Part shown: positions 1-47,441 of the stretch, in pieces
How the letters are laid out: the number at the start of each line of letters is the position of its first letter
Position numbering within the stretch: position 1 is the first letter of the stretch
Sequence record: OZ346186.1
Origin: a phage
Reading direction: 5' to 3' (one strand)
DNA: 50,013 nt
The notes under the pieces: model-generated
Told to the model about the DNA's origin: nothing
What the model saw: the letters and a program-made list of their open reading frames with translations, nothing else
Databases searched by the model: none
Position numbers and translations under genes: made by a program

Positions 1-1569
1 ATGCTGATTTGGGAAGACTTAACAGCGGCGCAAAAACGCGCCGTTAAGGAAATGAGCGAATATTCATTCGAAAAGATGATCCGCATTTGGTTTCAACTTC
101 TCCAGGGGCAAAGGTTCTTAGGAAACTGGCATTTCAGTTACCTATGTAGCGAAGTTGAAAAAATCATCAAAGGAGAGTCACAGAATGTAATTTTCAACAT
201 AACGCCAGGCAGTGGTAAAACAGAGATATTCTCGATCCACATGTCACCTTATGCGTCATTGAAAAGTAAGAAGGTGCGAAATCTTAATCTTTCGTTTAGT
301 GATGGCCTTGTCCAGCAGAATAGCAACCGAATTAAGGAGATTATTGGTTCTCCAGAATGGCAGGAGCTATGGCCTGGAAAGCTGGCAAAGGCGAGCGCAA
401 AGGATTTGATTGTAACCGATGGCGGCAAGGTTAAATTACAAGTTAACTCGCGTTCTATCGGTGGTCAGGTTACTGGTCTGCGTGGCGGATACATGGACGA
501 TGGATTTACTGGTATGCTGGTTCTTGATGATCCAGACAAACCGGATGACATGCTTTCTAAGGTAAAGCGAGAAGCCGGACACATGCGGCTAAAGAACACG
601 GTTCGATCGCGTCGAATGAAGGACACCACGCCAATTGTGATGGTTCAGCAACGCCTACACGTCAATGATTCAACATGGTTCATGACAAACGGCGGCATGG
701 GCGGTATCAAGTTTAAGGTGGTTAGTATTCCGGCGCTCGTTACTAAGGAATATCGCGAAACACTTCCTGATTGGTTAAAGCCTGAGTTTGATCGCGATGT
801 TTTGTCCAGTAAGCCAGTGATGATTGATGGAGTTGCTCATTATTCATTCTGGCCTGCTAAGGAAAGCGCGGAGGAATTGCTTGCGCTTCGAAATGCTGAT
901 CCGTACACGTTCGCTAGTCAGTATCAGCAACAGCCTGTTGCGCTTGGCGGTAACGTGTTTAAAACAGAGTGGTTTCAGTATTACGGCAGCAGCGAGAAAT
1001 GCACGCTACCAAAACCGGATCGCTTTGAATATACATTTATCACGGTTGATACCGCACAGAAAACAGGGGAGCTTAACGACTACTCCGTGATCTGTTATTG
1101 GGGGATGTATAAAGATCGCGTTTACTTCATTGATGGTGTTCGCGGAAAATGGGAAGCACCAGACCTTGAGACTAATTTTGTTGCGTTCGTTAATCAGTGC
1201 TGGAAGCGCAATAAAGAATGCGGAACGTTGCGAAGGATTCATGTTGAAGATAAATCGTCTGGCACTGGTTTGATTCAGAGTGCAGCGAAAAAAATAATGA
1301 TCAAGATCAATCCCGTTCAGCGCGATAAAGACAAGGTTACTCGTGCAATGGACGCAGCGCCAGTAATGCGCGCCGGACGCGTAGCACTTCCAGAATCCCA
1401 CCCTATGCTGGCTGAGATACTGGCTGAAGTTGCGGCGTTTACATTCGATGATTCGCATCCTCATGATGATATTGTTGATAACATCATTGATGCTGTTAAC
1501 ATTGAAATGAACATGGCAGATGATCCGGTAGGAAGAATGAAAAAATTGGCAGGTTTGCGGAACAAATAG
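1..1569 (+). CDS. terL: terminase large subunit
   Basis: 522-aa ORF at head of late operon, directly upstream of portal; window begins at its ATG, which overlaps the stop of the terS ORF at the window end if circular. Confidence 0.8.
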   Translation: MLIWEDLTAAQKRAVKEMSEYSFEKMIRIWFQLLQGQRFLGNWHFSYLCSEVEKIIKGESQNVIFNITPGSGKTEIFSIHMSPYASLKSKKVRNLNLSFSDGLVQQNSNRIKEIIGSPEWQELWPGKLAKASAKDLIVTDGGKVKLQVNSRSIGGQVTGLRGGYMDDGFTGMLVLDDPDKPDDMLSKVKREAGHMRLKNTVRSRRMKDTTPIVMVQQRLHVNDSTWFMTNGGMGGIKFKVVSIPALVTKEYRETLPDWLKPEFDRDVLSSKPVMIDGVAHYSFWPAKESAEELLALRNADPYTFASQYQQQPVALGGNVFKTEWFQYYGSSEKCTLPKPDRFEYTFITVDTAQKTGELNDYSVICYWGMYKDRVYFIDGVRGKWEAPDLETNFVAFVNQCWKRNKECGTLRRIHVEDKSSGTGLIQSAAKKIMIKINPVQRDKDKVTRAMDAAPVMRAGRVALPESHPMLAEILAEVAAFTFDDSHPHDDIVDNIIDAVNIEMNMADDPVGRMKKLAGLRNK

Positions 1570-1595
1570 CACGAATCGACAAACCAATATATAAT
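1566..1595 (+). promoter_or_regulatory. degenerate box copy (ATAGCACGAATCGACAAACC) + TATAAT after terL
   Basis: stop TAG embedded; TATAAT 1590-1595; immediately followed by terminator hairpin. Confidence 0.3.
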
Positions 1596-1596
1596 C

Positions 1597-1622
1597 AAAG
1601 GCTGGTAAATCCAGCCTTTTTT
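1597..1622 (+). terminator. rho-independent terminator-like hairpin + T-tract after terL
   Basis: aaaggctgg..ccagccttt stem then TTTTT. Confidence 0.5.
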
Positions 1623-1637
1623 ATTGGAGGAAAGATA

Positions 1638-21754: not shown

Positions 21755-21835
21755 ACAGCACAAATAGCTAAACAAATGAAAAATGCGGTGTTATAATTCA
21801 CCGCACAAGTTAACAACAAGCGTGAGGAAATAAAC

Positions 21836-27105: not shown

Positions 27106-27162
27106 ATGCACCTCAAACAAAAAAAAGCCTGACAGATGATAACATCATGCCAGGCATTGTTT

Positions 27163-27636
27163 TTAGCAATTAGTGCTTTCAGGTTTATACAGGAATCCTC
27201 CAGGTTCATAATCTGACATTCTTACCACTCGCAACATTTCACGCTTATCACATCTCTTTGTGAGCGGTTTGCCATTGGAATCAAATCGCAGATCTGGACG
27301 GCAGAATGACGCGCGATAGCCTTGACAACCATATTTCTTGTAATCGTTATGCACCTTTTGAGCGCCAGCGGCTGAAATCATACCGCGAACGCGCCACTGA
27401 TTTACAGTTTGCTGGCTAACGTTAAGACGCTTTGCCATTGCTGACACGCTGCCGTAATACTCAATAAGAATGTCAAGCCGTGCTTTTAGTCCGGCGCGCA
27501 CTTCATCTTTTAAAACATAGTATCCTGTAGGGCGCTTGCGCTTTTTCTTATCTTTACCCCGTCGAGTTCCGTTATTGCCATTAATTGTGCGCTTGTCAAT
27601 CTTGCCTGTTGATACTGCGATTCGCTGTTCTTTCAT
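27163..27636 (-). CDS. HTH DNA-binding protein (putative transcription regulator)
   Basis: 157 aa; basic N-terminus (KDKKKRKR) and helix-turn-helix-like AKRLNVSQQTVNQWR. Confidence 0.45.
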   Translation of the reverse strand: MKEQRIAVSTGKIDKRTINGNNGTRRGKDKKKRKRPTGYYVLKDEVRAGLKARLDILIEYYGSVSAMAKRLNVSQQTVNQWRVRGMISAAGAQKVHNDYKKYGCQGYRASFCRPDLRFDSNGKPLTKRCDKREMLRVVRMSDYEPGGFLYKPESTNC

Positions 27637-27648: not shown

Positions 27649-27692
27649 AATAGCATTTTTTGTTAAACGATGATTTAATGATTGTGTATTAT
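27649..27692 (+). promoter_or_regulatory. conserved box AATAGCATTTTTTGTTAAAC + 18-nt spacer + TATTAT (promoter cassette for helicase operon)
   Basis: box 27649-27668, -10-like 27687-27692; divergent from HTH regulator gene. Confidence 0.5.
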
Positions 27693-27725
27693 ACACGCCA
27701 AATGGCATTACTCAAAGGTTTTAGA

Positions 27726-29765
27726 ATGATTCCAAACATTGAAAAGCAAATATCAGCACTTGGTGAAGCGGTAATTAAATCCATTCAGGAGCGATTCACT
27801 GTTGGCGAGATTGTGCCTTACCCTTACCAGTGCGTTGCATACGCTGAGATCGCAAAGCGTATGAAAAATTATGAGCATCCATTCTTTGTTAAAGCGTCCG
27901 TATCGGCTGGCAAAACATTGATGTTTGCAATGGTTGCTCACCAGTGCCGGAAAATGGGATTAAAAATGATGGTCCTTGCTCGCCAGGCTGAGATTGTGGA
28001 TCAGGATTCTGAAGAGATAACAAATCTTGGCGTGCCGAACTCAATCTATTGTGCAGGACTGAAGACAAAAAGCGCATACTTTCCGATTGTTGTTGGTTCT
28101 GAGGGCACTGTAGTTAATGGGCTGTTTAAAGCGCTTGGCGACTATGTTCCGCACGTTATCGGGATTGACGAGTGTCACCAGGTGGATTGGGAAGACCTTG
28201 CCGACGCCATAGAGAAAGACGAATCATTTTTACAAATGACAACGAAGAAAGGCGAAAAAGTACCAAATCCAGATTATGACATAACGAGCGATAACGAATG
28301 CGAAGAGTTCCTGATTGGTGAGGATGGCTTACCAATGGAGGGAACAGGCCGCACGCAATACACTGTTATTATCATGGAAATGATGCGACGTTGCAGGAAA
28401 GCATATGGTCATGAACTGCGCATCTTTGGTATGACTGGTTCGGAGTTTCGCGGAGTAGTCCCGATCCTGGTAGAAGACAAAAAACAGAAAGGATTCTGGC
28501 GTGAACAGGTTACTAATATTGACACCAACTACCTGATCAAATTCGGTTCTGTTGTGCCAACAAATTTTGGCGACGTTGGCGATCTAGGGTATGACCTTTC
28601 AGAGTTTGAGGCATCCAGCGAGGATGGCGTCGCAGACTTTGACGCTAAAACGCTTCGCAGGATGGAACAAAAAATTCATGAAGAAGCGACCATGACAAAG
28701 CGCATCATGGCGAAAGTTCACGAGATCTGTAAAAACCGTAACGGCGTACTTGTGACATGTGCAGGAGAAAGGCATTGCAAAGAGGCAGCGGCGGCATTGC
28801 CACCTGGAACGACTTACAGGATCATTACTGGTAAGACTGGCGACAACCAGCGCAAGGAGTGGTTGAAGGAAGCATACGAGGGGAAGGTAAAATACATCTT
28901 CCAGGTTCAGGCGCTAACAACTGGCGTTAACGTGCCGTTTTGGGATACGTCGGTTATATTGCGTAAGATTGGATCTCTTACGTTGCTGATTCAGCTTTTA
29001 GGGCGCGGAATGCGACTACTTAAGAAGTGGCATAAGGAGCAAGGATTCCAGAAAGATGATCATCTCGTCATGGATTTTTCAGGAACGATGGACGAGCTAG
29101 GGGAGCTTTATTTTGATCCGATACTGGAACAGGCGCAGCACCAGAAGCGATTCAGAAATGGTAAAGATCCGAAGCCTTGTCCTATTTGCGGAACTCTTAA
29201 CAGCTATTATGCTCGTCGCTGTATGCACGTAGACGAAGACGGCAACAGATGCGAGTGGTTCTTTAAATTCAGGACATGTGACGATCAGGTTGACCCACGC
29301 ACTAAAAAGATTATTCATCGCGGTTGTGGAACGAAAAATGATATTGCGGCCAGGGTGTGCAGACATTGCGACATGTCATTGATTGACCCTAACGAGAAGT
29401 TGAGCGGAAAGCACTACACAAAAAACGACTGGTTCCAGGTGCAATCTTTCTCGGTTGACATGACGAAAAACCAGAAAGGGATAATATTTAATTATGAGCT
29501 TTCCGATGGCATAGACACTTTCAGGGCGAGAGAGATATTTTTCCCTGAATCTGAGAGCCAAATTTGCCGCGCAAAATGGCGAAGCGTTGCTCTTAAGCAC
29601 ATACCAGATCGCCGCGTTGCTGGCATGGTGGCGAGCTATCGTAATGCACGAAAAATAATGCAATATGTTAATCACATTATGCCGCCATCGCGTGTGACTC
29701 ACCGCAAGACTAGCAAGGGAGAAGATAATTTGTACAAGAAGGAATTTAATTATGGCAATGACTGA
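27726..29765 (+). CDS. SF2 helicase (DEAH-box) with C-terminal Cys-rich zinc ribbons
   Basis: Walker A SVSAGKT, DEcH box GIDECH; start ATG 27726 chosen from spacing to box promoter; track ORF from 27660. Confidence 0.75.
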   Translation: MIPNIEKQISALGEAVIKSIQERFTVGEIVPYPYQCVAYAEIAKRMKNYEHPFFVKASVSAGKTLMFAMVAHQCRKMGLKMMVLARQAEIVDQDSEEITNLGVPNSIYCAGLKTKSAYFPIVVGSEGTVVNGLFKALGDYVPHVIGIDECHQVDWEDLADAIEKDESFLQMTTKKGEKVPNPDYDITSDNECEEFLIGEDGLPMEGTGRTQYTVIIMEMMRRCRKAYGHELRIFGMTGSEFRGVVPILVEDKKQKGFWREQVTNIDTNYLIKFGSVVPTNFGDVGDLGYDLSEFEASSEDGVADFDAKTLRRMEQKIHEEATMTKRIMAKVHEICKNRNGVLVTCAGERHCKEAAAALPPGTTYRIITGKTGDNQRKEWLKEAYEGKVKYIFQVQALTTGVNVPFWDTSVILRKIGSLTLLIQLLGRGMRLLKKWHKEQGFQKDDHLVMDFSGTMDELGELYFDPILEQAQHQKRFRNGKDPKPCPICGTLNSYYARRCMHVDEDGNRCEWFFKFRTCDDQVDPRTKKIIHRGCGTKNDIAARVCRHCDMSLIDPNEKLSGKHYTKNDWFQVQSFSVDMTKNQKGIIFNYELSDGIDTFRAREIFFPESESQICRAKWRSVALKHIPDRRVAGMVASYRNARKIMQYVNHIMPPSRVTHRKTSKGEDNLYKKEFNYGND

Positions 29766-30171
29766 TAAAGGCGATTATCTGGAGTTTTACGAAAGAGATC
29801 CGACAGATACTCTGAAAGAGGAATCGCACCAGATCGGGGCGTTTCAATGGGTAACTTATGCTCATCCTGAATTACTGGCATGGCATACGAAAAACGAGGG
29901 CGACAAGGGAATCGCCACCGCAATGATGGATCAGCAAGCCGGACTCGTTAAGGGCGTAAGTGATTTTATCATCCTGATTGGATTAAAAGGCCGTTACCCG
30001 TTTGCAGCAATTGAGATGAAACGCGTCAATAAGTCAGGCAAGGGGAAGGCTTCACCAGTCAGCAAGGAGCAAAAAGCCTTCTTGCGCCGTGTGCGTGAGC
30101 TTGGCGGATTCGCTGCCGTAACATACGGATATAAGCAATTCATGATCGCGGTAGAATACATGATGAAATAG
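29752..30171 (+). CDS. VRR-NUC domain nuclease
   Basis: 139 aa; D...E.K nuclease core (DFIILIG...AIEMKR) typical of VRR-NUC, commonly paired with phage helicases. Confidence 0.6.
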   Translation: MAMTDKGDYLEFYERDPTDTLKEESHQIGAFQWVTYAHPELLAWHTKNEGDKGIATAMMDQQAGLVKGVSDFIILIGLKGRYPFAAIEMKRVNKSGKGKASPVSKEQKAFLRRVRELGGFAAVTYGYKQFMIAVEYMMK

Positions 30172-30211
30172 CACTTTTTGTTAAAACAGGCGCGAAGGAT
30201 TGCGCCATAAT
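30167..30211 (+). promoter_or_regulatory. conserved box + hairpin + CATAAT (promoter cassette upstream of dam)
   Basis: box 30167-30187 includes stop TAG of VRR-NUC gene; hairpin ggcgc..gcgcc; -10-like 30206-30211. Confidence 0.5.
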
Positions 30212-30245
30212 AACACCAGTTCAACAAGCAACAGGTAATTAAGAA

Positions 30246-30947
30246 ATGAGCAAAGAAACCGAAGTGACATTTGAACAAATAGAACGCGAAACATTCATTG
30301 GCAATGCTCTCGCTACTGGTGGTCATTACCAGGCTGTTAAACCAAATCAATATTTCAAAGTGACTGGCAACCGATATAACGGCAGCAATACGCCGGACAT
30401 TGTGCGCGATTTGTGGTCTACGCCGTATGAGCTTGTCGCATGGATGGAAAGCGAATACGGTGATTATGACATCGACGCGGCGGCAAGCAAAGAAAATGCT
30501 GTATGTGAAAAATTCTACAGCAAGGAAACAAATTGCTTAAAGCGTTGGTGGGGTAGTAATAAGCATATATGGCTGAATCCACCGTACAGCAATATTACTC
30601 CATTTGTTAAGAAGGCGATTGAGCAAATGGAGCACAACAACCAGATCGACATTCTGTTACCTTGCGACACGTCAACAGGATGGTTTTATGAGGCGCAGCA
30701 GCGCGCAGCGGAAATCATCTGGATCACTGGCGAAGTTTACCAGGAGGACGGAACAGAATATTCCCGCACAGGACGCCTTGCGTTTACCTCGGCTCTTACA
30801 GGTAAGCCAGTGCAGGGAAACAACAAAGGAAGCGTTATTTTCATCATGCGCGAACTTAAAGAAGGTGAGCAGCAGAAAACTCGATACGTTAAAATCAGCG
30901 ACATTTGCCCTTCGGTGGCAGACCGTCGCGCACGGAAACGGAGCTAA
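30246..30947 (+). CDS. dam: DNA N6-adenine methyltransferase (Dam-like)
   Basis: 233 aa with NPPY catalytic motif (LNPPYS). Confidence 0.75.
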   Translation: MSKETEVTFEQIERETFIGNALATGGHYQAVKPNQYFKVTGNRYNGSNTPDIVRDLWSTPYELVAWMESEYGDYDIDAAASKENAVCEKFYSKETNCLKRWWGSNKHIWLNPPYSNITPFVKKAIEQMEHNNQIDILLPCDTSTGWFYEAQQRAAEIIWITGEVYQEDGTEYSRTGRLAFTSALTGKPVQGNNKGSVIFIMRELKEGEQQKTRYVKISDICPSVADRRARKRS

Positions 30948-30951
30948 AACC

Positions 30952-31209
30952 ATGCAAAAAGAAAGAAGCGTTTATTTAAATGAAACTGGCGAATGGTTGT
31001 TATTTCGCGCTATGGTATGCGATTCACTTGATAAAAACCCTAACGTGAAAAAGATGATTGATTGCGATCCGTGGGAATTTTCAAGCGCATTAGATATGAG
31101 CTTTGAGGAGACAAAAAAACTCCCGCTTGAAAAATGGAACGAGAAAATCAGAAATGACATGCAAGAATTTGTCGATTCGTGGAATTTTCAGCACGGAATA
31201 ATCCACTAA
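30952..31209 (+). CDS. hypothetical protein
   Basis: 85 aa from ATG 30952 (SD ggag); track ORF 30604..31209 is the same frame extended over dam. Confidence 0.55.
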   Translation: MQKERSVYLNETGEWLLFRAMVCDSLDKNPNVKKMIDCDPWEFSSALDMSFEETKKLPLEKWNEKIRNDMQEFVDSWNFQHGIIH

Positions 31210-31252
31210 TAGCACTTTTTGTTAAAACGCCCGACCTTGTGTCGGGCATAAT
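31208..31252 (+). promoter_or_regulatory. conserved box + hairpin + CATAAT
   Basis: box 31208-31228; hairpin gcccgac..gtcgggc; -10-like 31247-31252. Confidence 0.5.
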
Positions 31253-31284
31253 TATTTCATCAAAACGAACAAGAGGAAAACAAA

Positions 31285-31464
31285 ATGGTTGTTTACGATC
31301 CACGCGCTTTTAAAATTGCTCAAGAAGTTTCACGCGAATCTGTTGCTGGCGGTTCGGTTAACGGCTATCAGTTTGATTGGTCGGCAGCAATGACCTTGCT
31401 TAAGGTTGCATATGGTCACGCGCCAATTGAAACAGCGGAGGCATATTATAAGCATGAAGGTTGA
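31285..31464 (+). CDS. hypothetical protein
   Basis: 59 aa hand-translated; SD aagagga; downstream of box promoter at 31208. Confidence 0.5.
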   Translation: MVVYDPRAFKIAQEVSRESVAGGSVNGYQFDWSAAMTLLKVAYGHAPIETAEAYYKHEG

Positions 31465-31696
31465 ACAAGGTAGGCAGGCTGTATGGAATCACGCAAAGGA
31501 ATGCGGGATCGCAGAAGACATAGCCAGGATAGCGAAATATTTTGATATTGCTGACATAAGCATTATCAGCGGCGACAAAATGACATTTCTCAATGAGCGA
31601 CCGCGCAAAATGCATCGCGTACCTGCAATACCAACAAAGATTGATTTCAAAGAGGCTATGGCGAAAATTCGCGAGCCGCGCAAATACTACAAATGA
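31454..31696 (+). CDS. hypothetical protein
   Basis: 80 aa from ATG 31454 overlapping previous stop. Confidence 0.5.
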   Translation: MKVEQGRQAVWNHAKECGIAEDIARIAKYFDIADISIISGDKMTFLNERPRKMHRVPAIPTKIDFKEAMAKIREPRKYYK

Positions 31697-31707
31697 GGAT
31701 TATTATC

Positions 31708-31782
31708 ATGTGGCGTTTGTTACTTTTGCCCTTACCTGTTATGATGGCGATCTATATTGTATATGTTGTCATAATGAGATAA
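31708..31782 (+). CDS. 24-aa hydrophobic peptide (MWRLLLLPLPVMMAIYIVYVVIMR)
   Basis: hand-translated; SD gagga 8 nt upstream; its stop lies inside SD of the next gene. Confidence 0.3.
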   Translation: MWRLLLLPLPVMMAIYIVYVVIMR

Positions 31783-31794
31783 GGAGAATTTTTG

Positions 31795-32910
31795 ATGAAG
31801 CAAATCAAAATCACAGATGAACAATTTATCAATGAGCGCAAGCAGGGAAAGACATATAAGCAGATCGCTAATGAGTATGGTATGAACGTTCGCAGCATTG
31901 AGCGACGCGCGGCACGATTAGCAAAGCAAGGTAAAGTTACAACCATCGGATCACCTGGTTTTGGTGTTACTGGAGAATCAAAGCTAATTGATAAAGATGG
32001 CAATGTGGTTATGACATGGATTAAGACAAGTAAGGACCGCGAACAGTTAGAAGCATTAATGCAGGCCGCTATGGATGCATTTAGCGAAGAAGTTCCTCGA
32101 CTTGATCCACAGCCAGAATCACAAAAGGATTATAGCGAGACGTTATCACTGTATCCGATCTTTGACATGCACTTGGGCGCAATGGCGCATAAGCATGAAT
32201 GCGGCGAGAATTGGGATACAGCAACAGCAGAGCGCGTAATGAATAATTTCATTGATTATTCCATCCAGTGCGCTCCTGATAGTGAAAAAGCTGTTTTGCT
32301 GATTGGTGGTGATATGCTTCACAGCGACGGACTGGAAGCGGTAACGCCTGCAAGCGGTCACGTATTAGATCAAGATAGTCGATACGCAAAACTTGTTTAT
32401 GTTGCCATCCGGTCAGTGCGTAGAGCAATCACAAAGCTGTTATCAAAACACAAAAACGTCGAGATTCAGATTATTGAAGGAAACCACGACCAAAGCGGCA
32501 TGATCTGGTTGCGCGCAGCAATGGCGGCAGCATATGAGAATGAGCCACGAGTGCATGTTGATGTGTCTCCGCGAGTAGTTCATCACACACAATATGGCAA
32601 AACGTTCCTGGCATACCATCACGGGCATACTATCCGCAAACCTGAAACGTTGCTTATGATGTGCGCGGCAGACTGGCGAGAAGACTTCGGTAATTCAAAA
32701 ATGATGTATGCTCACGTAGGGCACTGGCATCATCAGACAGTAACTGAAACAAGCCTGGGCATTGTTGAAGTGCATAGCACTATGGCGGCAAAAGATGCAT
32801 ATGCGGCGCGCGGTGGATGGCGTTCTCGTCGCCGTGCGGCTGTTATTGTTTATGATAAAGAATACGGAGAAGTAGGGCGATTTATGCATTATCCAGAAAT
32901 GGCTGGTTGA
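31795..32910 (+). CDS. HTH domain fused to Mre11/SbcD-type metallophosphoesterase
   Basis: N-terminal HTH-like KTYKQIANEYGMNVRSIERRAARL; phosphoesterase motifs DMH, GGDMLH, GNHD, GHWHH. Confidence 0.55.
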   Translation: MKQIKITDEQFINERKQGKTYKQIANEYGMNVRSIERRAARLAKQGKVTTIGSPGFGVTGESKLIDKDGNVVMTWIKTSKDREQLEALMQAAMDAFSEEVPRLDPQPESQKDYSETLSLYPIFDMHLGAMAHKHECGENWDTATAERVMNNFIDYSIQCAPDSEKAVLLIGGDMLHSDGLEAVTPASGHVLDQDSRYAKLVYVAIRSVRRAITKLLSKHKNVEIQIIEGNHDQSGMIWLRAAMAAAYENEPRVHVDVSPRVVHHTQYGKTFLAYHHGHTIRKPETLLMMCAADWREDFGNSKMMYAHVGHWHHQTVTETSLGIVEVHSTMAAKDAYAARGGWRSRRRAAVIVYDKEYGEVGRFMHYPEMAG

Positions 32911-32953
32911 ACTTTTAATCATTAAAATATAAATATAAATCATCAATTTAATT

Positions 32954-32983
32954 GGGCGTGGCATTTTGCTTCGCCCTTTTTTT
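32954..32983 (+). terminator. rho-independent terminator before lysis cassette
   Basis: gggcg..cgccc + T7. Confidence 0.55.
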
Positions 32984-33056
32984 ATTCCTTTTTGTGCGTT
33001 CAATGGTTAGGATACAATCAATTAATTGTTGACTTTTATATACAGGAGATCTAATC

Positions 33057-33272
33057 ATGAAAGATTTTTTAAACGCTGCAACTTCCGGCACTGGCGGCGC
33101 GTCAATCACTGGCGCGGTAACTGGTCAAACAACTATCGCAATAGCCAGCTTAGTTTTGATGGCTGCATTTGGTATGTGGGGCGCTTATCTTCGCTGGCGT
33201 GATAGTAAGGCGCTACGTGACGCGCTTGAATGCGGTGATATTAAGAAAGCTATTGAGATCAGAGGTAAATAA
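33057..33272 (+). CDS. holin (single-TMD, pinholin-like)
   Basis: 71 aa, one hydrophobic segment, charged C-terminus, immediately upstream of endolysin. Confidence 0.6.
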
Positions 33273-33760
33273 TGAGTATAAAACAAAGAGTGACCGCTGC
33301 GGCTTTTGGCGTTGCTCTTGCCCTTACTTCTCCGCTACTGGAGGAAATAGAAGGAGTAAAATATAAGCCGTACAAAGATATTGCTGGAATATGGACGGTT
33401 TGCGCCGGAATAACTGGACATGACGTAATACCAGGTAAAACGTACACACAGAGAGAGTGCGATGCGCTACTGGCAAAGCATATCAAGATCGCAAAGGATG
33501 AAGTTGATAAGCGTGTGAAGGTTGACATTCCTGATACAATGCGCGCGGCGATGTATTCATTCACATACAATGCTGGCACTGGCGCTTTTAGAAATTCAAC
33601 CATGCTTAAGCTGATTAATAACGGTCGTTATATGGAAGCGTGCGATCAGTTATGGCGATGGACAAAATACACCAATCCAAAAACAGGAAAGAAAGAAACG
33701 TCTAAAGGACTGCGCAACCGCCGCGCGGTGGAATTTAAATATTGCATTAAGGATCTGTAA
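33272..33760 (+). CDS. endolysin, T4-lysozyme-type muramidase with SAR-like N-terminus
   Basis: E-x8-D-x5-T catalytic spacing ([16 protein letters not shown]); Gly/Ala-rich weakly hydrophobic N-terminal segment. Confidence 0.75.
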
Positions 33761-33762
33761 TT

Positions 33763-34161
33763 ATGCGAAAGTTATCAATAATCGCGATCGCTGTTATTTT
33801 GTCTGGATGTTCAAGCGTTACGCCACTGACCGGATTGATAGGAAGCAAGCCTGAGATAACAGCACAGGCAGGAGCGGAGAACGTAAAGCAGACCGTTGGA
33901 GTTACCGCAAAGCAGGACACCAGCACAAAACAGGAAACTACAATAAAGGAATCTGCGGTTGATAAGGTGGACACTTCCAGCAAGAAGGATTTCACTACGT
34001 CAACCATTCAGGCAAACACCATCAAGGCTGATAAAATCCAGGTTGTGCAGGGTGAGCAAAGGAAGTGGTACGATCCTATAATCTATTGCGCTGCAATTTT
34101 CAGTGGTCTTTTGTCAATGCTTTACTTTTCCTACCGCAAAGGCAACAAAAAGGAGGCTTAA
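33763..34161 (+). CDS. unimolecular spanin (u-spanin)
   Basis: 132 aa; N-terminal lipoprotein signal (lipobox LSGC) and C-terminal TMD; directly after endolysin. Confidence 0.6.
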   Translation: MRKLSIIAIAVILSGCSSVTPLTGLIGSKPEITAQAGAENVKQTVGVTAKQDTSTKQETTIKESAVDKVDTSSKKDFTTSTIQANTIKADKIQVVQGEQRKWYDPIIYCAAIFSGLLSMLYFSYRKGNKKEA

Positions 34162-34177
34162 CGCCTCCTTTGTTTTA
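34147..34177. terminator. bidirectional terminator after spanin gene
   Basis: aggaggc ttaac gcctcct flanked by A- and T-tracts. Confidence 0.6.
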
Positions 34178-34396
34178 TAGTGAATCCATCAAATCTTGAA
34201 AGCTGTTTCCGCTATAATCATTCTCGACAAGAATGTAAGCACCTTTCTTCTTTATATCCCATAACATTTCATTGTATTCGTAACGATTTATTTCAAACGT
34301 GCTGCCATCTTCTCTTGTCGCAGTTCCTTTGTCGTTGAAAACATCAAAAGTTACATTGATGATTTTTGTCTCTTTCTTTGTTACTTTGATAGCCAT
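34175..34396 (-). CDS. hypothetical protein
   Basis: 73 aa from ATG 34396 (SD gagga); downstream of box promoter 34430-34474. Confidence 0.55.
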   Translation of the reverse strand: MAIKVTKKETKIINVTFDVFNDKGTATREDGSTFEINRYEYNEMLWDIKKKGAYILVENDYSGNSFQDLMDSL

Positions 34397-34429
34397 TTTT
34401 AAAATCCTCATATTCGTTTCGATGAAACA

Positions 34430-34474
34430 AATATACCCGATACGAGATCGGGAGTCTTAACAAAAAGTGCTATT
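34430..34474 (-). promoter_or_regulatory. conserved box + hairpin + TATATT (minus strand)
   Basis: box 34454-34474 includes stop of 34470..34664; hairpin cccgat..atcggg; -10-like 34430-34435. Confidence 0.5.
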
Positions 34475-34664
34475 CAATACGCTTTACAGTAACCAACAAA
34501 ACGCCGTCCTCATCACACAAATTATGCTCTGATATATCAAACGCTCGCATGTCAGAATGAATGAGCGTTAACATTGCGTGCATGAAGTCGTCATGTGAGA
34601 TTGAACTTGCGGCGCAGAACTTCAATATTTTGTCTATTAGCATTTGACGTAAACAATTCTTCAT
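34470..34664 (-). CDS. hypothetical ORF overlapping previous gene in +1 frame (possible frameshift partner)
   Basis: stop TAG is embedded in a box copy like other real genes; overlaps 34591..34983 by 74 nt. Confidence 0.35.
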   Translation of the reverse strand: MKNCLRQMLIDKILKFCAASSISHDDFMHAMLTLIHSDMRAFDISEHNLCDEDGVLLVTVKRIE

Positions 34665-34983
34665 CGCTCATTTCTCCGATCCTTAAAACATCCCTTACCC
34701 ATTCGTTTTGCATACCTTCCAGACTGTAAAGTTCAAACGAGAAAGGTCGATTTGCAGACCCTTTCTTACACCAGAACTTTCCACCAACTCCATCAAGATA
34801 ACCAGCGGTCATCATTCTTGCGCAAAACTCTTTTGAAACGGCGGTTGCAAACATTCTCGGCGTAAATCCTGCGGCCCTTGCGAGCCGCTCACATTCTCTA
34901 TGCTGAAATATAAATTTTGCGATATGTTGACGTGTAAACCATTCGAATGACTCACACCAGCGATACAGATCCAGAAGAAACAT
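34591..34983 (-). CDS. hypothetical protein
   Basis: 130 aa; start overlaps stop of replication protein gene. Confidence 0.5.
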   Translation of the reverse strand: MFLLDLYRWCESFEWFTRQHIAKFIFQHRECERLARAAGFTPRMFATAVSKEFCARMMTAGYLDGVGGKFWCKKGSANRPFSFELYSLEGMQNEWVRDVLRIGEMSDEELFTSNANRQNIEVLRRKFNLT

Positions 34984-34985
34984 AA

Positions 34986-36569
34986 TTACCCCAGCAATGT
35001 TGGATTTACGAAAACAACGCCATTAATCACACAAATATAATTTCTTTCTTCAAGCATCGGCAGCAGTTGCGTTTCCATACGCTTCATTACGCCAGCCTGA
35101 CCAACAAACGGCTTAACTTTTCGTGCAGCCTCATATATGGCGCGCACATTCAAGATTCCCTTGTTAGCCTTACCGTGTCGAGTGATAATCTCGATTAGTT
35201 TACCCATTTCAGCATCATCACCAGCATAGCCAGAAGCGTTGGCGGCGCTAATGTATGTTTTGCTCAACTCGCTAAACATCAGCAGTGCTTCTTGAACGGT
35301 TTCAACTTCAATCTCTTTCGACTTCTGAGGGTATCCACCAGGATTAAACCAGTTGCGGATAGTGTGCAAAACCGAAGCAATCCTGATCACCTGCTTATCC
35401 ATTTTGCCAAGAGCACCGCGCAGCATTGTATGCGAATACTTTCCGCCATCGGCAAGGTGCGGTTCCATCTCCTGACGAGCCATGTTAAGAACTCGCATTG
35501 CTGATTTGCTGATCTTAAGCTGGATGTTTGATTCACTCATGATGTTATGGATCAGCTTGAAATATTGGCTTTTCAGTTCTCCATCAACAGGTTCATAAGT
35601 AGAATCACCGTTATCATCAACAAACTTTCTACGGCCTAAAAATGATTCCTCACGCACAAGCAAATAACGCTCACTCACACCGATACCGCGCGATCCTGCA
35701 TCCATGATGGCATTTATTGTTTCATCCTGGGCAATTACCGCCATACAGCCAAGAGCTTTAAAACTCATATTGTTGTCAGCGTTTGCACGAGCTATAGAAA
35801 CATGACCATGATCCCATGCTTTTAGCACAAGTTCGCTGTTGGTTTTACGTTCGCTATTGGCATATGTCAGACCTAAAAGGCTGTTAATACTTGTTGCCTC
35901 GTCTGAAATCACAGCAAAGTTACCCTGGCGATTGTTGATTCTTGCAAGTCCTTCCGGCGTTGTGTCGGACACAGGGAAAACGATGTCACACATCTTTTCC
36001 AGTTTTTCTTCCAGATCTTCTTTCTCCTGGTACAGAGACTCCATATCAGCGCCGGAGCGCTCGCTTTTCATCTCTTTTGCAAGACCTGCCAACTTTGCCT
36101 GAATCTTTTTTCTTTCCTTCTTTCGATGATCATTAATTCTTTCCACTTCAGCAACCATAGGAGCAAGTGCCAGGCTGTTAACGGCAGATTTACCAGTTGA
36201 TGGAGGCTGGCTTGTGACAACGTAAAGAGCGGTTGGTTGATCCGTTCCGTGATACTCAACCGTGAAGCGTCCAAGCATTGCAGCAGATACACAGCCGATA
36301 AAATGCATATATGCCGATGATTCAGGGAATTGAACAGATCGAGCAATGTTTCGCGCCAACTTTCCAACAACATCAACATCATTGCCAAGAGAAATTACAG
36401 GGTAGCGATCGTTTCCGTTATTAACATCATTAACCTCACCCCAAAAGCTGGACGATTGACGGTATCCGTTAGCCTGAATGGACACGCGCACCGGAGACAA
36501 TCCTTGTGCATCAGCTAATTCGATAATTTGTTTTGGTGTTAGTTTATTGGTTTCAAACGAAAAATTCAT
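34986..36569 (-). CDS. P-loop replication ATPase (helicase/primase-associated, putative)
   Basis: 527 aa from ATG 36569 (SD aaggag); Walker A SQPPSTGKS and Walker B-like AVISDE. Confidence 0.55.
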   Translation of the reverse strand: MNFSFETNKLTPKQIIELADAQGLSPVRVSIQANGYRQSSSFWGEVNDVNNGNDRYPVISLGNDVDVVGKLARNIARSVQFPESSAYMHFIGCVSAAMLGRFTVEYHGTDQPTALYVVTSQPPSTGKSAVNSLALAPMVAEVERINDHRKKERKKIQAKLAGLAKEMKSERSGADMESLYQEKEDLEEKLEKMCDIVFPVSDTTPEGLARINNRQGNFAVISDEATSINSLLGLTYANSERKTNSELVLKAWDHGHVSIARANADNNMSFKALGCMAVIAQDETINAIMDAGSRGIGVSERYLLVREESFLGRRKFVDDNGDSTYEPVDGELKSQYFKLIHNIMSESNIQLKISKSAMRVLNMARQEMEPHLADGGKYSHTMLRGALGKMDKQVIRIASVLHTIRNWFNPGGYPQKSKEIEVETVQEALLMFSELSKTYISAANASGYAGDDAEMGKLIEIITRHGKANKGILNVRAIYEAARKVKPFVGQAGVMKRMETQLLPMLEERNYICVINGVVFVNPTLLG

Positions 36570-36596
36570 TGATGATAACTCCTTTTTGATGCGGCA

Positions 36597-36641
36597 ATAA
36601 TACCGCACCAATGCTACCCGCATTTAACAAAAAATGCTATT
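36597..36641 (-). promoter_or_regulatory. conserved box (variant) + TATTAT, upstream of replication ATPase gene
   Basis: box 36621-36641 includes stop TAG of 36637..36858; -10-like 36597-36602. Confidence 0.5.
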
Positions 36642-36858
36642 TTATCCGCTCTATGCTAACTAAGATTTTTTCTGGTTCCTTTGCACTATGGCAATGCGCG
36701 GTTACAGAATCAACAAAATCAAAGTAAAGTGATTTGTGATATGAGAATCCAATCAGCCACCCAACCATCGTTTTCTTTATTGGCCTGACTACATCGCCAG
36801 GCTTGAAGGTTTTTGTTGCTGAATAAGTCACCTTATAGCGATATTCAGTCTTGATCAC
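36637..36858 (-). CDS. hypothetical protein
   Basis: 73 aa; stop TAG embedded in box copy. Confidence 0.55.
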   Translation of the reverse strand: MIKTEYRYKVTYSATKTFKPGDVVRPIKKTMVGWLIGFSYHKSLYFDFVDSVTAHCHSAKEPEKILVSIERIK

Positions 36859-37241
36859 TTATACATAGCCTCAAACAAATGACAGCCACCAGCGGAAAAC
36901 CCTACTTCTTCGCGGTATAGCGTCCAGCGGTCGCCAGCTTCATCAAACACATAACCAGCAACAGCGCCAAGCGCGCGGCCTTGCTCAATCTGGTAGCGCT
37001 TTCCTTCTTTGAAATGCTTTTTACAAGGGATCTTGTGATCTACAAAGGTGCATTTAATTGTTTTTGTCTTGATATGACGATAGTCAGACTCAACAGCGTT
37101 TTGCCACTTACTACCCTTTGTAATGCTCTTTACCTGGAATTGTTCCAACTCGATCACATCATCGCTACCAGCAATTTTTTCGTATACAGCTTTATAACGA
37201 CCGTTCATCAAAACGTTGGTTTTATTGCAGATAACTTTCAT
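36855..37241 (-). CDS. hypothetical Cys-containing protein
   Basis: 128 aa; SD aaggag; downstream of box promoter 37272-37317. Confidence 0.55.
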   Translation of the reverse strand: MKVICNKTNVLMNGRYKAVYEKIAGSDDVIELEQFQVKSITKGSKWQNAVESDYRHIKTKTIKCTFVDHKIPCKKHFKEGKRYQIEQGRALGAVAGYVFDEAGDRWTLYREEVGFSAGGCHLFEAMYK

Positions 37242-37271
37242 CGTTTATTTCTCCTTTCGTTTCGGTGAAGT

Positions 37272-37317
37272 GATTATGCCAGGCTTTTACACCTGGCTTT
37301 TAACAAAAAGTGCTATT
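37272..37317 (-). promoter_or_regulatory. conserved box + hairpin + ATAATC (minus strand)
   Basis: box 37297-37317 includes stop TAG of methyltransferase-like gene; hairpin gccagg..cctggc; -10-like 37272-37277. Confidence 0.5.
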
Positions 37318-38023: not shown

Positions 38024-38032
38024 TTCATCACC

Positions 38033-38257
38033 TCAAAACGGAAAGCATCGCGGGCAGTTAGGATCAAAATTGCATCCGCAATCATTGACAATCATAGTTG
38101 GATCTGCAAATGCAGCGCCGCATTCATGATCCATATCCATTTCACCCAGCGCATCATCAAGCGTTCTGATCTTATATGCAACTTCAAGCGCTGCCTCTTT
38201 ATTTAATCCGGCATCTTCAGCCATTTGCAGGCGCTCAAAAAATCCGTCCTGACTCAT
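38033..38257 (-). CDS. hypothetical Cys-rich protein
   Basis: 74 aa with CGCNFDPNCPRC. Confidence 0.5.
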   Translation of the reverse strand: MSQDGFFERLQMAEDAGLNKEAALEVAYKIRTLDDALGEMDMDHECGAAFADPTMIVNDCGCNFDPNCPRCFPF

Positions 38258-38367
38258 TTCATAATCTCCTTTATAGCAACCAAAATAATAGCAAGACCAG
38301 CAGTGACAACAAAAAGACCAGCAAGGACAATCATCACTACAAATAAAATATCAAGAAATTTCATCAT
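38254..38367 (-). CDS. 37-aa single-pass membrane peptide
   Basis: hand-translated MMKFLDILFVVMIVLAGLFVVTAGLAIILVAIKEIMK; SD aaggtga; stop overlaps next ATG (ATGA). Confidence 0.35.
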   Translation of the reverse strand: MMKFLDILFVVMIVLAGLFVVTAGLAIILVAIKEIMK

Positions 38368-39292: not shown

Positions 39293-39322
39293 TTTTTTAA
39301 TCCTCGTTCGTTGTCGATGCGC

Positions 39323-39369
39323 ATAATATACCAATCAGAGGCGCATCGGTTTTAACAAAAAGTGCTATT
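39323..39369 (-). promoter_or_regulatory. conserved box + TATTAT (minus strand)
   Basis: box 39349-39369 abuts stop TAA of 39369..39635; -10-like about 39323-39328. Confidence 0.5.
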
Positions 39370-41385: not shown

Positions 41386-41638
41386 GGCATTAATTGGAGT
41401 TTTGATTGCAATTGCTACCCTGACCGGATGCGAAAAGGCATCGGAATCAACGGTTGTCGTAGGCGTGGAGTCAGATTTCAAAGTCGGTCGCCTGTTCACT
41501 GTTGACGGATGCACAGCATACAGATTCTATGATAACGGTCGCGCGATCTATTACACCAATTGCAAAGGCGCAACGGATAGCACGTACAACAGCGGAAAGA
41601 ACGTAATGCACCAGCAAGTCACAACAGATATTAAATAG
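41378..41638 (+). CDS. lipoprotein
   Basis: 86 aa; signal peptide MNKALIGVLIAIATLTGC nearly identical to that of the Cor-like gene; stop TAG embedded in box. Confidence 0.55.
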   Translation: MNKALIGVLIAIATLTGCEKASESTVVVGVESDFKVGRLFTVDGCTAYRFYDNGRAIYYTNCKGATDSTYNSGKNVMHQQVTTDIK

Positions 41639-41678
41639 CACTTTTTGTTAAAACGCCAGGCGCAAAACCTGGCATAAT
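41634..41678 (+). promoter_or_regulatory. conserved box + hairpin + CATAAT
   Basis: box 41634-41654 includes stop TAG; hairpin gccagg..cctggc; -10-like 41673-41678. Confidence 0.5.
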
Positions 41679-42097: not shown

Positions 42098-42141
42098 ATA
42101 GCACTTTTTGTTAAAACTCAAAAACGATAACCAGGCATAAT
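42097..42141 (+). promoter_or_regulatory. conserved box + CATAAT
   Basis: box 42097-42117; -10-like 42136-42141; followed by about 200-nt leader. Confidence 0.5.
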
Positions 42142-42344: not shown

Positions 42345-42527
42345 ATGATGGATAAGATCATCAAAATGAGCGAAGTCAAGCCGGGAATGATGGTTAAGTT
42401 TGCTGGCAAATATCGCCTGGTACTGGATAACTGCCGAAAAGAGAACATTCTCACCATTCGCGTTAACGGCAAGGCGCAGCTATTCGCCCCCACCTCAGAT
42501 ATTAATGTTGAGGTCAGAATTAAGTAA
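42345..42527 (+). CDS. hypothetical small protein (paralog-like of 41912..42097)
   Basis: 60 aa; possible start at 42348; preceded by about 200-nt leader. Confidence 0.5.
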   Translation: MMDKIIKMSEVKPGMMVKFAGKYRLVLDNCRKENILTIRVNGKAQLFAPTSDINVEVRIK

Positions 42528-43501: not shown

Positions 43502-43544
43502 ATAGCACGAATTGTTAAAACTCAAATGTGGGGCCAGGTATAAT
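43501..43544 (+). promoter_or_regulatory. conserved box (variant AATAGCACGAATTGTTAAAAC) + TATAAT
   Basis: box 43501-43521; -10 43539-43544 inside inverted repeat ggcc..ggcc. Confidence 0.5.
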
Positions 43545-43574
43545 GGCCTCACTTTCAACGAAGGGGATAAAACG

Positions 43575-44564: not shown

Positions 44565-44722
44565 CCTGGTTACTTTTAATCTTTGTCACAAGTTACAACT
44601 CCGCCGCTATTGAATCGCAAGAGTTCCACGGCGAATCAAGATGCCAGGAAGCACGAAAACAAGTTATTCTCCACATGTCAGATAGTGGGAAAGATGTAAC
44701 AGCGTTATGCGTTCGTAAATAG
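44561..44722 (+). CDS. 53-aa small secreted/membrane protein
   Basis: hand-translated; hydrophobic N-terminus MTWLLLIFVTSYNSAA; ATG overlaps upstream stop; stop TAG embedded in box. Confidence 0.4.
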   Translation: MTWLLLIFVTSYNSAAIESQEFHGESRCQEARKQVILHMSDSGKDVTALCVRK

Positions 44723-44762
44723 CACTTTTTGCAAAAACAGATTGTCGGGCTTGCTGTATAGT
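44718..44762 (+). promoter_or_regulatory. conserved box (variant ..TTTGCAAAAAC) + TATAGT
   Basis: box 44718-44738 includes stop TAG; -10-like 44757-44762. Confidence 0.5.
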
Positions 44763-44793
44763 AAGCCCATCTACAACAAACGAGGATTAAATC

Positions 44794-45433: not shown

Positions 45434-46024
45434 ATGAAACGAGACATTATCATCCTTAACGGACCGCCAGGAGTTGGCAAAGATACGATTGCGGCATACT
45501 TAACGGGTCATCGTTACGCAGCGGTTAAAGCGTCATTTAAACAGCCTATGTTCGATATTGCATTCTCCATGCTTGGCGTTTACCGATATGACGAGTTCAT
45601 TGATCTGTATAACGACCGCGAGCAGAAAGAAAAGCCTCAAGCAATCTTGCAAGGCAAGTCGCCTCGCCAGTTCATGATCTGGATTAGCGAAGAAGTCATG
45701 AAGCCAGCTTTTGGCGAGCAATATTTTGGGGATCGCATGGTTGAGCAAGTACACGAGATGTACAGAGATTTAGCTGTTGTAATTAGTGATGGCGGATTCC
45801 CTGAAGAAATCAAGCCGCTCGTTAAGGCAGGCCATGAAGTTCACATTTGCCGACTGCATCGCGAAGGATTCACGTTTGATGGCGATTCGCGAAACTATAT
45901 TGACCTGAGCGGATACCATCACCGAGTCAAGCATTACGACTTCACAATGACTGATGGCGAGCCAGAAAAGACTGTTGACGAGATCATCAAAACTGTCCAG
46001 TGGAAACACATTAAGATTGAATAG
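45434..46024 (+). CDS. deoxynucleoside monophosphate kinase (T4 Dnk-like)
   Basis: P-loop GPPGVGKDT and QGKSPRQ segment resembling T4 gene 1 kinase; start 45434 has SD ggaga (track start 45419). Confidence 0.6.
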   Translation: MKRDIIILNGPPGVGKDTIAAYLTGHRYAAVKASFKQPMFDIAFSMLGVYRYDEFIDLYNDREQKEKPQAILQGKSPRQFMIWISEEVMKPAFGEQYFGDRMVEQVHEMYRDLAVVISDGGFPEEIKPLVKAGHEVHICRLHREGFTFDGDSRNYIDLSGYHHRVKHYDFTMTDGEPEKTVDEIIKTVQWKHIKIE

Positions 46025-46064
46025 CACGAATTGCTAAAAGCGGGGCGCAATGCCTCGCTATAAT
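46020..46064 (+). promoter_or_regulatory. conserved box (variant ATAGCACGAATTGCTAAAA) + TATAAT
   Basis: box 46020-46039 includes stop TAG of kinase gene; -10 46059-46064. Confidence 0.5.
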
Positions 46065-47078: not shown

Positions 47079-47366
47079 ATGGCTAAAAGCAATCGTAAAA
47101 TGTTGATTAACGCATTCGAAAAGGCGGCGCTTGAGCGTGGTTGGAATGACTCATTTCACACGGCAAACTGTATCCGCCGTTACGGATTCAAGAATTGTCG
47201 CTCATGGGCGCGTCAAATGGCTTCATGGTATGATCTTGATGCGCATTACCTTGATATGGATTGCGCCCTGGTTGAAATGATTGAGCAGGCCGCATTAGAG
47301 GATCGACCATTAACGCAATCTGATTTTGACGATTTTGTGCGCGATGAAATCTATTACATGAGCTAA
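47079..47366 (+). CDS. hypothetical protein
   Basis: 95 aa from ATG 47079 (SD aaaggagg). Confidence 0.5.
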   Translation: MAKSNRKMLINAFEKAALERGWNDSFHTANCIRRYGFKNCRSWARQMASWYDLDAHYLDMDCALVEMIEQAALEDRPLTQSDFDDFVRDEIYYMS

Positions 47367-47409
47367 TAGCACTTTTTGTTAAAACTTCCGCGAGGGCATT
47401 TGTTAAAGT
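47365..47409 (+). promoter_or_regulatory. conserved box + TAAAGT
   Basis: box 47365-47385 overlaps stop TAA; -10-like 47404-47409. Confidence 0.45.
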
Positions 47410-47441
47410 GTCCTCATTGAAGCGAAACAGAGGAAATCAAA

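Follow-up and report, generated by a model that had tools for sequence, protein, structure and literature searches.

Covarying gene-end hairpins apparently nested in the promoter cassettes of T1-like phages

The 50,013-nucleotide (nt) stretch of phage DNA in sequence record OZ346186.1, referred to here as a whole as the window, carries many copies of a cassette composed of a repeated box and an extended -10 hexamer at a fixed distance, and most of these cassettes hold a stable hairpin such as the one at 30189-30206, directly after a VRR-NUC gene. The hairpins are apparently RNA elements of the 3′ end of the upstream gene that are nested in the promoter of the next one. This architecture is directly observed, and its activity would probably be that of a leaky terminator or attenuator and/or a 3′-end protector of the upstream gene, accommodated in the unconstrained spacer of a promoter that depends on the box. 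The window is Hanrivervirus-like and falls in the Drexlerviridae (T1-like siphoviruses), with members including JLBYU41, KarlJaspers/Bas06 and pSf-1 matching a 6-kb query from the region of the VRR-NUC hairpin at 94-97.5% identity over its full length. It is collinear with the annotation of KarlJaspers, whose genome is 97% identical, with late structural genes on the + strand in the left part and with diverging blocks of replication, lysis and numerous small early genes in the right part.

The strict form of the box, AGCACTTTTTGTTAAAAC, is present in 16 window copies at three or fewer mismatches, where 0.11 would be expected, and the general form ATAGCAC-N3-TTGnTAAAA has 22 matches, or about 21 when the one at 15496+, located at a gene start, is set aside. 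Every real box is oriented toward a downstream gene, with a -10-like hexamer exactly 19 nt farther on that is usually followed by CATCGAAACGA, a Shine-Dalgarno sequence and ATG. The same layout is found in T1 and Citrobacter phage Stevie, and a family-wide survey combining an IMG/VR box scan (120 loci) with nine GenBank genomes yielded 389 box sites, 175 of them non-redundant and derived from about 58 related genomes and contigs. The family consensus at the hexamer is tGgTATAAT, an extended -10 in which the G at -14 is present in 139 of 175 cassettes; the 19-nt distance between the box and this motif is fixed throughout, and TTGnTA lies 22 base pairs (bp) from the hexamer. No -35 is evident, since the promoter has an extended -10, and a consensus scan of 29000-48900 for sigma-70 -35/-10 pairs returned no excess (30 sites against 41 expected). 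Consensus rules capture neither the cassette promoters nor most of the hairpins. From its sequence, the predicted promoter appears to use the upstream box and the extended -10 and not a -35 hexamer, with transcription starting at a putative site downstream.

Stable hairpins accompany 14 of the approximately 21 window boxes, with folding free energies of -8.5 to -19 kcal/mol. An earlier note on this DNA, made from its letters, had quoted seven inverted repeats, and all seven lie where it placed them, five between the box and CATAAT or TATATT and two around the hexamer; the repeats it gave at 43531-43549 and 44744-44769 do enclose the -10, with stems at 43528-43552 and 44747-44768. It overlooked the hairpins at 1597-1619, 21784-21805, 27127-27155, 36587-36610, 39315-39348, 46039-46059 and 47392-47415, and although it recognised both positional types, it gave too little weight to the -10-enclosing arrangement, which is the commoner one family-wide. 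In the spacer type the stem occupies the spacer, its last base being the first of the hexamer (30189-30206, 31229-31247, 34436-34452, 37278-37297, 41655-41673 and 46039-46059), and in the other type the stem brackets the -10 hexamer. RNA folding, which the note had suggested as a check, was carried out on 46-nt segments at 13 hairpin sites against 200 dinucleotide shuffles each; 12 of the 13 have free energies of -11.5 to -19.4 kcal/mol and z-scores of -2.7 to -5.5, with 0-2 of 200 shuffles as stable. When the 45-nt regions of the 175 cassettes are folded, the mean minimum free energy is -10.9 kcal/mol, compared with -4.9 for shuffles, 104 of the 175 have z-scores below -2, and 119 reach -8 kcal/mol or lower. 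Counted from the end of the box, the last base of the 3′ arm lies either at +14 to +20 or at +23 to +35. A stem finder restricted to Watson-Crick pairs places a stem in 111 of 175 cassettes, 38 of the spacer type with a mean of 6.4 pairs and 73 enclosing the -10 with a mean of 7.6, and most loops measure 4-10 nt. Stem register differs from one site to another, and Rfam returned no match at the gathering score anywhere in the window.

The pairing is under selection, as the hairpins at orthologous junctions make clear. At the VRR-NUC junction the box is present in 24 of 24 loci and all 19 distinct spacers fold, with at least seven unrelated stems closed by GAAA, GCAA, GCGA or UUCG loops. In a gap-free alignment of 13 orthologues in one register, 91.2% of cells are paired against 65.8% in shuffles (0/500), all seven pairs show double-sided changes, and the covariation score is 0.698 against 0.268 (0/500), with slid registers reaching only 20-42%; two loci omitted from it, L009 and L065, have hairpins in another register, followed in both by UUUUG. 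The exonuclease VIII junction, which is of the -10-enclosing type, gives a similar result for all 10 of its distinct orthologues, with 92.5% of cells paired against 68.8% (0/500) and six of eight pairs altered on both sides. Orthologues of the hairpin at 37278-37297 carry the unrelated stems GCCGGAT/ATCCGGC, GCGGGTC/GATCCGC and ACCCGGC-GAAA-GTCGGGT. Within the genus, variation lies mostly in the loops, to which it is confined among close relatives at 41655-41673; at 31229-31247, a C-G pair has become A-U through a compensatory double change in locus L046, and an A-U pair is replaced by G.U in L003. When column-pair complementarity was pooled across the 175 cassettes, aligned free of gaps, the excesses were only small (sums 21-25 and 38-42) owing to the shifting stem register, and alignments of single junctions were used instead. 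The agreement among paralogues of a single genome, which the earlier note had read as covariation, does not strictly qualify as such; the true form is found at orthologous junctions, where pairing is kept through compensatory changes, contrary to the lack of covariation at homologous positions that the note had named among its grounds for refutation, and the selected structure that it had argued for is borne out there as well as by the family-wide folding. The possibility that the hairpins are a chance or compositional product of GC-rich spacers is in effect refuted, as shuffles that preserve composition still leave the z-scores given above, orthologues carry compensatory changes and slid-register controls collapse; only the hairpin at 34436-34452, which taken alone is weak (-8.5 kcal/mol, z -0.7), would fit it.

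The hairpins are tied to upstream genes and not to promoters as such. With an upstream gene defined as a co-directional open reading frame (ORF) of at least 60 codons ending at the box, a hairpin is present at 96 of 109 boxes with such an ORF (88%) and at 21 of 62 without one (34%), corresponding to an odds ratio of 14 (Fisher p = 4e-13). Gene ends are built into the promoter repeat itself, the upstream stop codon at 54 of 109 junctions being the TAG of aTAGcac (box positions 2-4, e.g., 30169-30171 and 31210-31212), and at other junctions a TAA just before the box or within TTGTTAAAA. Where the TAG of the box is the stop, the stem therefore begins about 18-20 nt past it. In the window, hairpins are absent or weak at boxes 5840-, 9600-, 20266-, 27650+, 38715-, 40245- and 42098+, and folding shows nothing at 42098+, 40245- and 27650+. 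The boxes at 5822-5840 (-), 9582-9600 (-) and 20248-20266 (-) have neither an upstream co-directional gene nor a hairpin, and the divergent promoter at 27650..27693 (+) likewise combines a box and an extended -10 with no upstream co-directional gene and no hairpin.

The strand under selection is the sense (box) strand, and the preference for this strand is directly visible in the mismatches that the stems tolerate. When stems of Watson-Crick pairs are allowed one internal mismatch of any kind, the single mismatches on the box strand comprise 28 G.T/T.G and 3 A.C/C.A (p = 4.5e-5), a count that is partly inflated by conserved letters of the -10 and extended -10 facing each other; with the conserved promoter columns 16-25 excluded, 13 G.U and 2 A.C remain (p = 0.004). 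The loops are also of RNA type, GNRA and UNCG accounting for 11 of 13 spacer-type tetraloops and for 11 of all 23 tetraloops, against 4.7% expected (p = 2e-9). The mismatch asymmetry and the loop types therefore disfavor a symmetric role in double-stranded DNA, such as a protein-binding palindrome or a cruciform, and also an antisense-strand terminator. The latter had been a candidate, the reverse strand reading as a hairpin followed by GUUUUAAC and 30206-30189 on the minus strand having been flagged by the terminator scan, and it was rejected on account of the wobble pairs on the box strand. Together, the linkage to upstream ORFs and the strand test place the function on RNA reading through from the upstream gene, in line with the possibility, raised in the earlier note, of an action on read-through mRNA in place of, or besides, one on promoter DNA.

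A role for the repeats at the DNA level of the promoter, through a cruciform, a strand-specific DNA hairpin, or a GC-rich spacer or discriminator that tunes melting or activator dependence, would account for their fixed place within the promoter and for the bracketing of the -10 in most family members. GC-rich discriminators affect open-complex stability at E. coli promoters, and the virion-RNA-polymerase promoters of phage N4, also with a short hairpin within the promoter of a virulent coliphage, offer a precedent. Such a role is nevertheless very unlikely, since it would lead to equal numbers of G.T and A.C mismatches, boxes without an upstream gene keep the box and extended -10 yet have no hairpin, so that the promoter does not need one, the stem register differs from site to site, and stems of 5-9 bp with loops of 4-15 nt extrude poorly. 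The N4 element is, moreover, a hairpin of the template DNA strand with a 3-nt loop and conserved bases that is used by a phage polymerase, whereas the non-template, sense strand is selected here and the loops are variable. The annotation of the 97% identical KarlJaspers genome includes no RNA polymerase or sigma gene, and no phage RNA polymerase is annotated in the Drexlerviridae (PMC11447400).

The resemblance of the hairpins to intrinsic terminators lies in their GC-rich stems of 5-10 bp about 20 nt after the stop codon, their GNRA or UUCG loops, an A-tract on the 5′ side and, in a minority, a full T-tract; they differ in that most family members hold the -10 hexamer in the loop and the defining U-tract is usually missing. 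In the window a full T-tract occurs only at 27119-27155 and 1597-1627, and the consensus terminator scan of the 20-kb early region at 29000-48900 shows no excess of canonical terminators (22 terminator-like sites against 21.8 expected) and recognises only two cassette hairpins, that at 31229-31247 being flagged as terminator-like. The tails of spacer-type hairpins are formed by the A/U-rich -10, with means of 4.1 T and 7.5 A+T per 10 nt and at least five T in 17 of 38, whereas hairpins enclosing the -10 are followed by AUCGAAACGA with a mean of 1.9 T. Orthologous junctions alternate between the two forms, the VRR-NUC junction having CCCGC-UUCG-GCGGG-UUUUGUAUUAU in some genomes and U-less stems in others, and the junction between the regulator and primase genes keeps a hairpin and T-tract in all genera and orthologues with different stems. 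This alternation in sequence suggests that U-less hairpins and terminators may be functionally equivalent along a gradient of strength. Some hairpins have already been annotated in this sense, as the T1 RefSeq record (NC_005833) lists orthologues at 38973-39001, 39998-40024 and 41980-42007 as rho-independent terminators and the Stevie record lists the box as a repeat_region and two hairpins as terminators, including the orthologue of 34436-34452, kept there as ACCCGA..TCGGGT.

Several observations weigh against a gene-end role with termination. About 95% of the hairpins are without a canonical U-tract, only 6 of 119 having at least five T in the next 8 nt and 70 of 119 having none or one, as the earlier note had anticipated in calling them U-tract-less. 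E. coli RNA polymerase normally requires a U-tract for termination, and at -10-enclosing sites termination may be weak or absent because the tails lack one; the loops at these sites, with a median of 8 nt and a maximum of 15, are also longer than is usual in terminators. The mismatch asymmetry points in the same direction but is not significant at the level of polymorphisms among close relatives, which comprise 10 G.U, 5 A.C, 8 compensatory doubles and 12 other changes. About one-third of boxes without a detected upstream ORF have a hairpin, and some of these may follow ORFs shorter than 60 codons; conversely, the box and CATAAT at 42098..42141 (+) are the exception in the window, with no hairpin (0 kcal/mol) despite an upstream co-directional ORF. 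The literature on T1-like phages yielded no transcript 3′-end, start-site or RNA-seq data.

In the proposed mechanism, the cassette would run from the upstream stop codon through a box centered near -41, a 19-nt spacer, the extended -10, a short discriminator and a start at CATCGAAACGA to the Shine-Dalgarno sequence and ATG. The spacer and discriminator would be free of sequence constraint because the promoter uses the box and extended -10 with no -35, and could encode the GC-rich 5-10 bp stem of the preceding cistron. Polymerase coming from the upstream gene would reach this stem some 20 nt after the stop codon, outside the footprint of the terminating ribosome, and read-through would be partly terminated or attenuated to a degree specific to each site, with help, at spacer-type sites, from the A/U-rich -10 behind the stem. 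The remaining 3′ stem-loop would shield the upstream mRNA from 3′ exonucleases, and the promoter would restart transcription of the next module. Hairpins of the REP type and other operon-internal 3′ stabilisers are comparable as stable U-less stem-loops directly 3′ of a cistron in polycistronic RNA, but REP sequences are conserved, whereas the hairpins described here are variable in sequence and embedded in a promoter, and their stabilising role is putative.

Processing without termination would leave identical signatures in the RNA and would depend equally on upstream transcription; in this reading, RNase E would cut the AU-rich box (CACUUUUUGUUAAAAC) upstream of the stem, and the 5′-terminal stem-loop that results would stabilise the downstream message. 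In its favor, the AU-rich box is unpaired and adjoins the stem on the 5′ side, and missing U-tracts would pose no problem. This explanation is rather unlikely in that the downstream genes have promoters of their own, which makes a processed read-through copy seem dispensable, and in that it accounts neither for the alternation of U-less hairpins and full terminators at orthologous junctions nor for the position of the stem 12-45 nt upstream of the predicted start. The stems, averaging 6.4-7.6 Watson-Crick pairs, fall short of the approximately 20 bp of near-continuous double-stranded RNA that mark an RNase III processing site. It is distinctly improbable that hairpin and promoter form a coupled device, in which the U-less hairpin would pause or release polymerase atop the next promoter, to be recaptured, possibly with a box-binding phage protein, and to restart at CATCGAAACGA; in a variant of this reading, U-less stems would terminate only with a phage-encoded factor. 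If such coupling were true, every module would be transcribed anew, with a uniform leader, and free polymerase would not need to locate the promoter.

A signal for recombination or replication, with the hairpin forming in sense-strand single-stranded DNA such as the lagging-strand template and with any effect on RNA incidental, is highly improbable. DNA hairpins tolerate G.T pairs, 9 of 75 distinct homology breakpoints against five close relatives fall in cassettes that make up 3.7% of the sequence (p = 0.002), and a whole spacer has been exchanged between flanks of more than 94% identity at 40205-40226; crossovers in the promoter-early stem-loop (PeSL) cassettes of T4-type phages have been located within the stem-loop or next to it (PMC2839356). 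Against this, the excess of breakpoints is modest and confounded by their intergenic location, the conserved box and 5′ leader alone supply homology for exchange, and neither the dependence on an upstream co-directional ORF nor the UUCG and GNRA loops would be predicted. At 40205-40226 (-), compared with L001 42790-42815 and L003 at about 38490-38513, the spacer, hexamer and discriminator are wholly different between flanks of 94-98% identity, and one of the three relatives has a strong -10-enclosing hairpin, GGGATA..TATCCC. From these sequences, the swap looks like gene conversion between cassettes.

Among the spacer-type cassettes of the window, the one after the VRR-NUC gene at 30168..30211 (+) consists of a box at 30168-30186, the hairpin GGCGCGA-AGGA-TTGCGCC at 30189-30206 (-12.3 kcal/mol, z -3.3) and CATAAT at 30206-30211. 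The cassette at 31209..31252 (+) has its box at 31209-31227, the hairpin GCCCGAC-cttgt-GTCGGGC at 31229-31247 (-13.6 kcal/mol, z -4.1) and CATAAT at 31247-31252, and that at 34430..34473 (-) has its box at 34455-34473, the hairpin CCCGAT-ctcgt-ATCGGG at 34436-34452 and TATATT at 34430-34435. After a Dcm-like gene, the cassette at 37273..37316 (-) comprises a box at 37298-37316, GCCAGG-tgtaaaa-CCTGGC at 37278-37297 (-13.7 kcal/mol, z -4.4) and CATAAT at 37273-37278. The remaining two lie at 41635..41678 (+), with a box at 41635-41653, GCCAGG-cgcaaaa-CCTGGC at 41655-41673 (-11.5 kcal/mol, z -2.7) and CATAAT at 41673-41678, and at 46021..46064 (+), with a box at 46021-46039, the stem AGCGGGGC-gcaat-GCCTCGCT at 46039-46059, which includes one G.U pair (-16.0 kcal/mol, z -3.3), and TATAAT at 46059-46064.

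In cassettes of the other type the hexamer lies within the loop. The cassette at 43502..43552 (+) has a box at 43502-43520 and the hairpin GTGGGGCCA..TGGCCTCAC at 43528-43552, with one G.U pair, around TATAAT (-16.4 kcal/mol, z -3.9), and that at 44719..44768 (+) has a box at 44719-44737 and GGGCTTGCT..AGTAAGCCC at 44747-44768 around TATAGT at 44757-44762 (-15.1 kcal/mol, z -3.2). At 47366..47422 (+), a box at 47366-47384 is followed by a hairpin with the core GAGGGCA..TGTCCTC at 47392-47415, again with one G.U pair, enclosing TAAAGT at 47404-47409 (-17.5 kcal/mol, z -5.5). On the minus strand, the cassette at 39315..39368 has a box at 39350-39368 and CGATGCGC..GCGCATCG at 39315-39348 around TATATT at 39325-39330 (-14.6 kcal/mol, z -3.6), and the one upstream of the helicase gene at 36587..36640 has a box at 36622-36640 and TGGTGCGG..CCGCATCA at 36587-36610 around TATTAT at 36597-36602 (-19.4 kcal/mol, z -4.1). 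After the exonuclease VIII gene, the cassette at 21755..21805 (+) combines a variant box at 21755-21773 with TGCGGTG..CACCGCA at 21784-21805, which encloses the -10 (-11.7 kcal/mol, z -3.5). Two further sites are canonical intrinsic terminators: between the helix-turn-helix regulator and primase genes at 27119..27179 (-), a box at 27161-27179 precedes a hairpin at 27127-27155 that encloses TATCAT and is followed by T8 (-18.1 kcal/mol, z -4.7), and after the large terminase gene at 1566..1627 (+), a degenerate box at 1566-1584 precedes a hairpin at 1597-1619 and a T-tract with no -10.

The box is an imperfect palindrome, TAGCA-N5-TGCTA, that is clearest in the copy at 46021-46039 (ATAGCACGAATTGCTAAAA), and its center lies about 41 bp upstream of the predicted start, a position like that of a class II activator. 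This geometry suggests binding by a dimeric helix-turn-helix protein and not by sigma region 4 or as an UP element. The obvious candidate for the box-binding protein is the 157-aa product of the gene at 27163-27636 (-), annotated as a transcriptional regulator in relatives, which matches phrog_2856 (E = 3e-78) and falls just under the Pfam cut-offs for the YdaS and P22 Cro helix-turn-helix families. The gene adjoins the primase gene in all genera, and its 3′ end overlaps the box that precedes the canonical terminator. Downstream of the hexamer, a conserved CATCGAAACGA motif lies about 6 nt past the -10, at the predicted transcription start or beginning of the leader (e.g., 31258-31269 and 41684-41694), and is shared across genera. 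Just after the promoter at 42098+, an insert of about 420 bp at 42152-42571 that is absent from KarlJaspers opens with a leader (about 42140-42200) that is GC-rich and probably structured, and contains a 60-aa ORF at 42345..42527. The boxes and extended -10 motifs at 5822-5840 (-) and 9582-9600 (-) are antisense inside the late structural operon and are kept at the same places in T1 (15086- and 18850-) and Stevie (6404-); that at 9600- has a bidirectional terminator about 40 nt later, near 9520-9545, and could give rise to a very short antisense RNA. The box-like sequence ATAGCACAAAAGGTGAAAA at 15496-15514 (+), which overlaps the ribosome-binding site and start of a J-like tail-tip gene, is conserved in T1, Stevie and others; it lacks a -10 at the expected spacing and is unlikely to represent a cassette. 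The same cassettes are present in three records labeled UNVERIFIED and named Campylobacter phage A113, A118 and A131 (L003, L004 and L005; MG065680, MG065675 and MG065665), with 83-92% identity over 93-95% of a 6-kb query from 29000-35000, and judged by this similarity the stated Campylobacter host looks doubtful.

Part of this system has been described before, namely the box repeat in phage TLS and a few hairpins annotated as terminators in T1 and Stevie. The 21-nt direct repeat of TLS, aaATAGCACnnnTTGnTAAAA, also noted for T1, Rtp and Rogue1 (Phage 2024, PMC11447400), is the box described here, alike in sequence and in its orientation with transcription, and located about 76 nt upstream of start codons. 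It was considered alone, with stoperator, enhancer and UP-element ideas put forward and with the fixed extended -10 and the hairpins unmentioned, and the 2024 re-annotation of TLS, which identified no more than three sigma-70-like promoters, gave no explanation for the 21-nt repeat (PMC11447400). What is new is that this repeat is part of a cassette of box and extended -10 with fixed geometry, and that an RNA hairpin linked to the upstream gene, which covaries and is specific to the sense strand, is present in most cassettes.

A gene-end hairpin nested in a promoter was previously described only in T4-type phages, and the closest analogue is provided by the PeSL cassettes of RB49/phi1, PST and nt-1 (Arbiol et al. 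2010, PMC2839356; Comeau et al. 2014, PMC4122927), for which terminator and promoter activities and mini-circles were shown by experiment (PMC2839356, PMC4122927). Both systems have a repeated, conserved intergenic promoter motif oriented with the downstream gene, a variable stem-loop placed either ahead of the -10, after the upstream promoter element, or across the -10 itself, and a concentration among small early genes of unknown function. The association of PeSL cassettes with indels and module replacement between close relatives may also be shared, given the modest and confounded breakpoint enrichment noted above. The cassettes described here belong to an unrelated family of siphoviruses, the Drexlerviridae, have, as read from the sequence, a palindrome-like box near -41 and an extended -10 in place of a sigma-70 -35/-10 promoter with an AT-rich upstream region, and have stems that are not of the G(n)-loop-C(n) type. 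The relationship is one of analogy and not of homology, because the phage family and the promoter type differ.

Cassette and hairpin together allow the transcription units of the Drexlerviridae to be mapped in a concrete and testable form. T1-like phages count among the most common phages of E. coli and Klebsiella and are included in therapy collections, and to our knowledge their transcription program is essentially unmapped. For phage engineering, the cassettes would represent natural insulated expression modules. Taken together, the analogy indicates that unrelated virulent phages, the T4-type myoviruses and the T1-type siphoviruses, converged on nesting a gene-end hairpin in the next promoter, and such convergence would suggest a general way to punctuate, and perhaps to shuffle, densely packed early genes.

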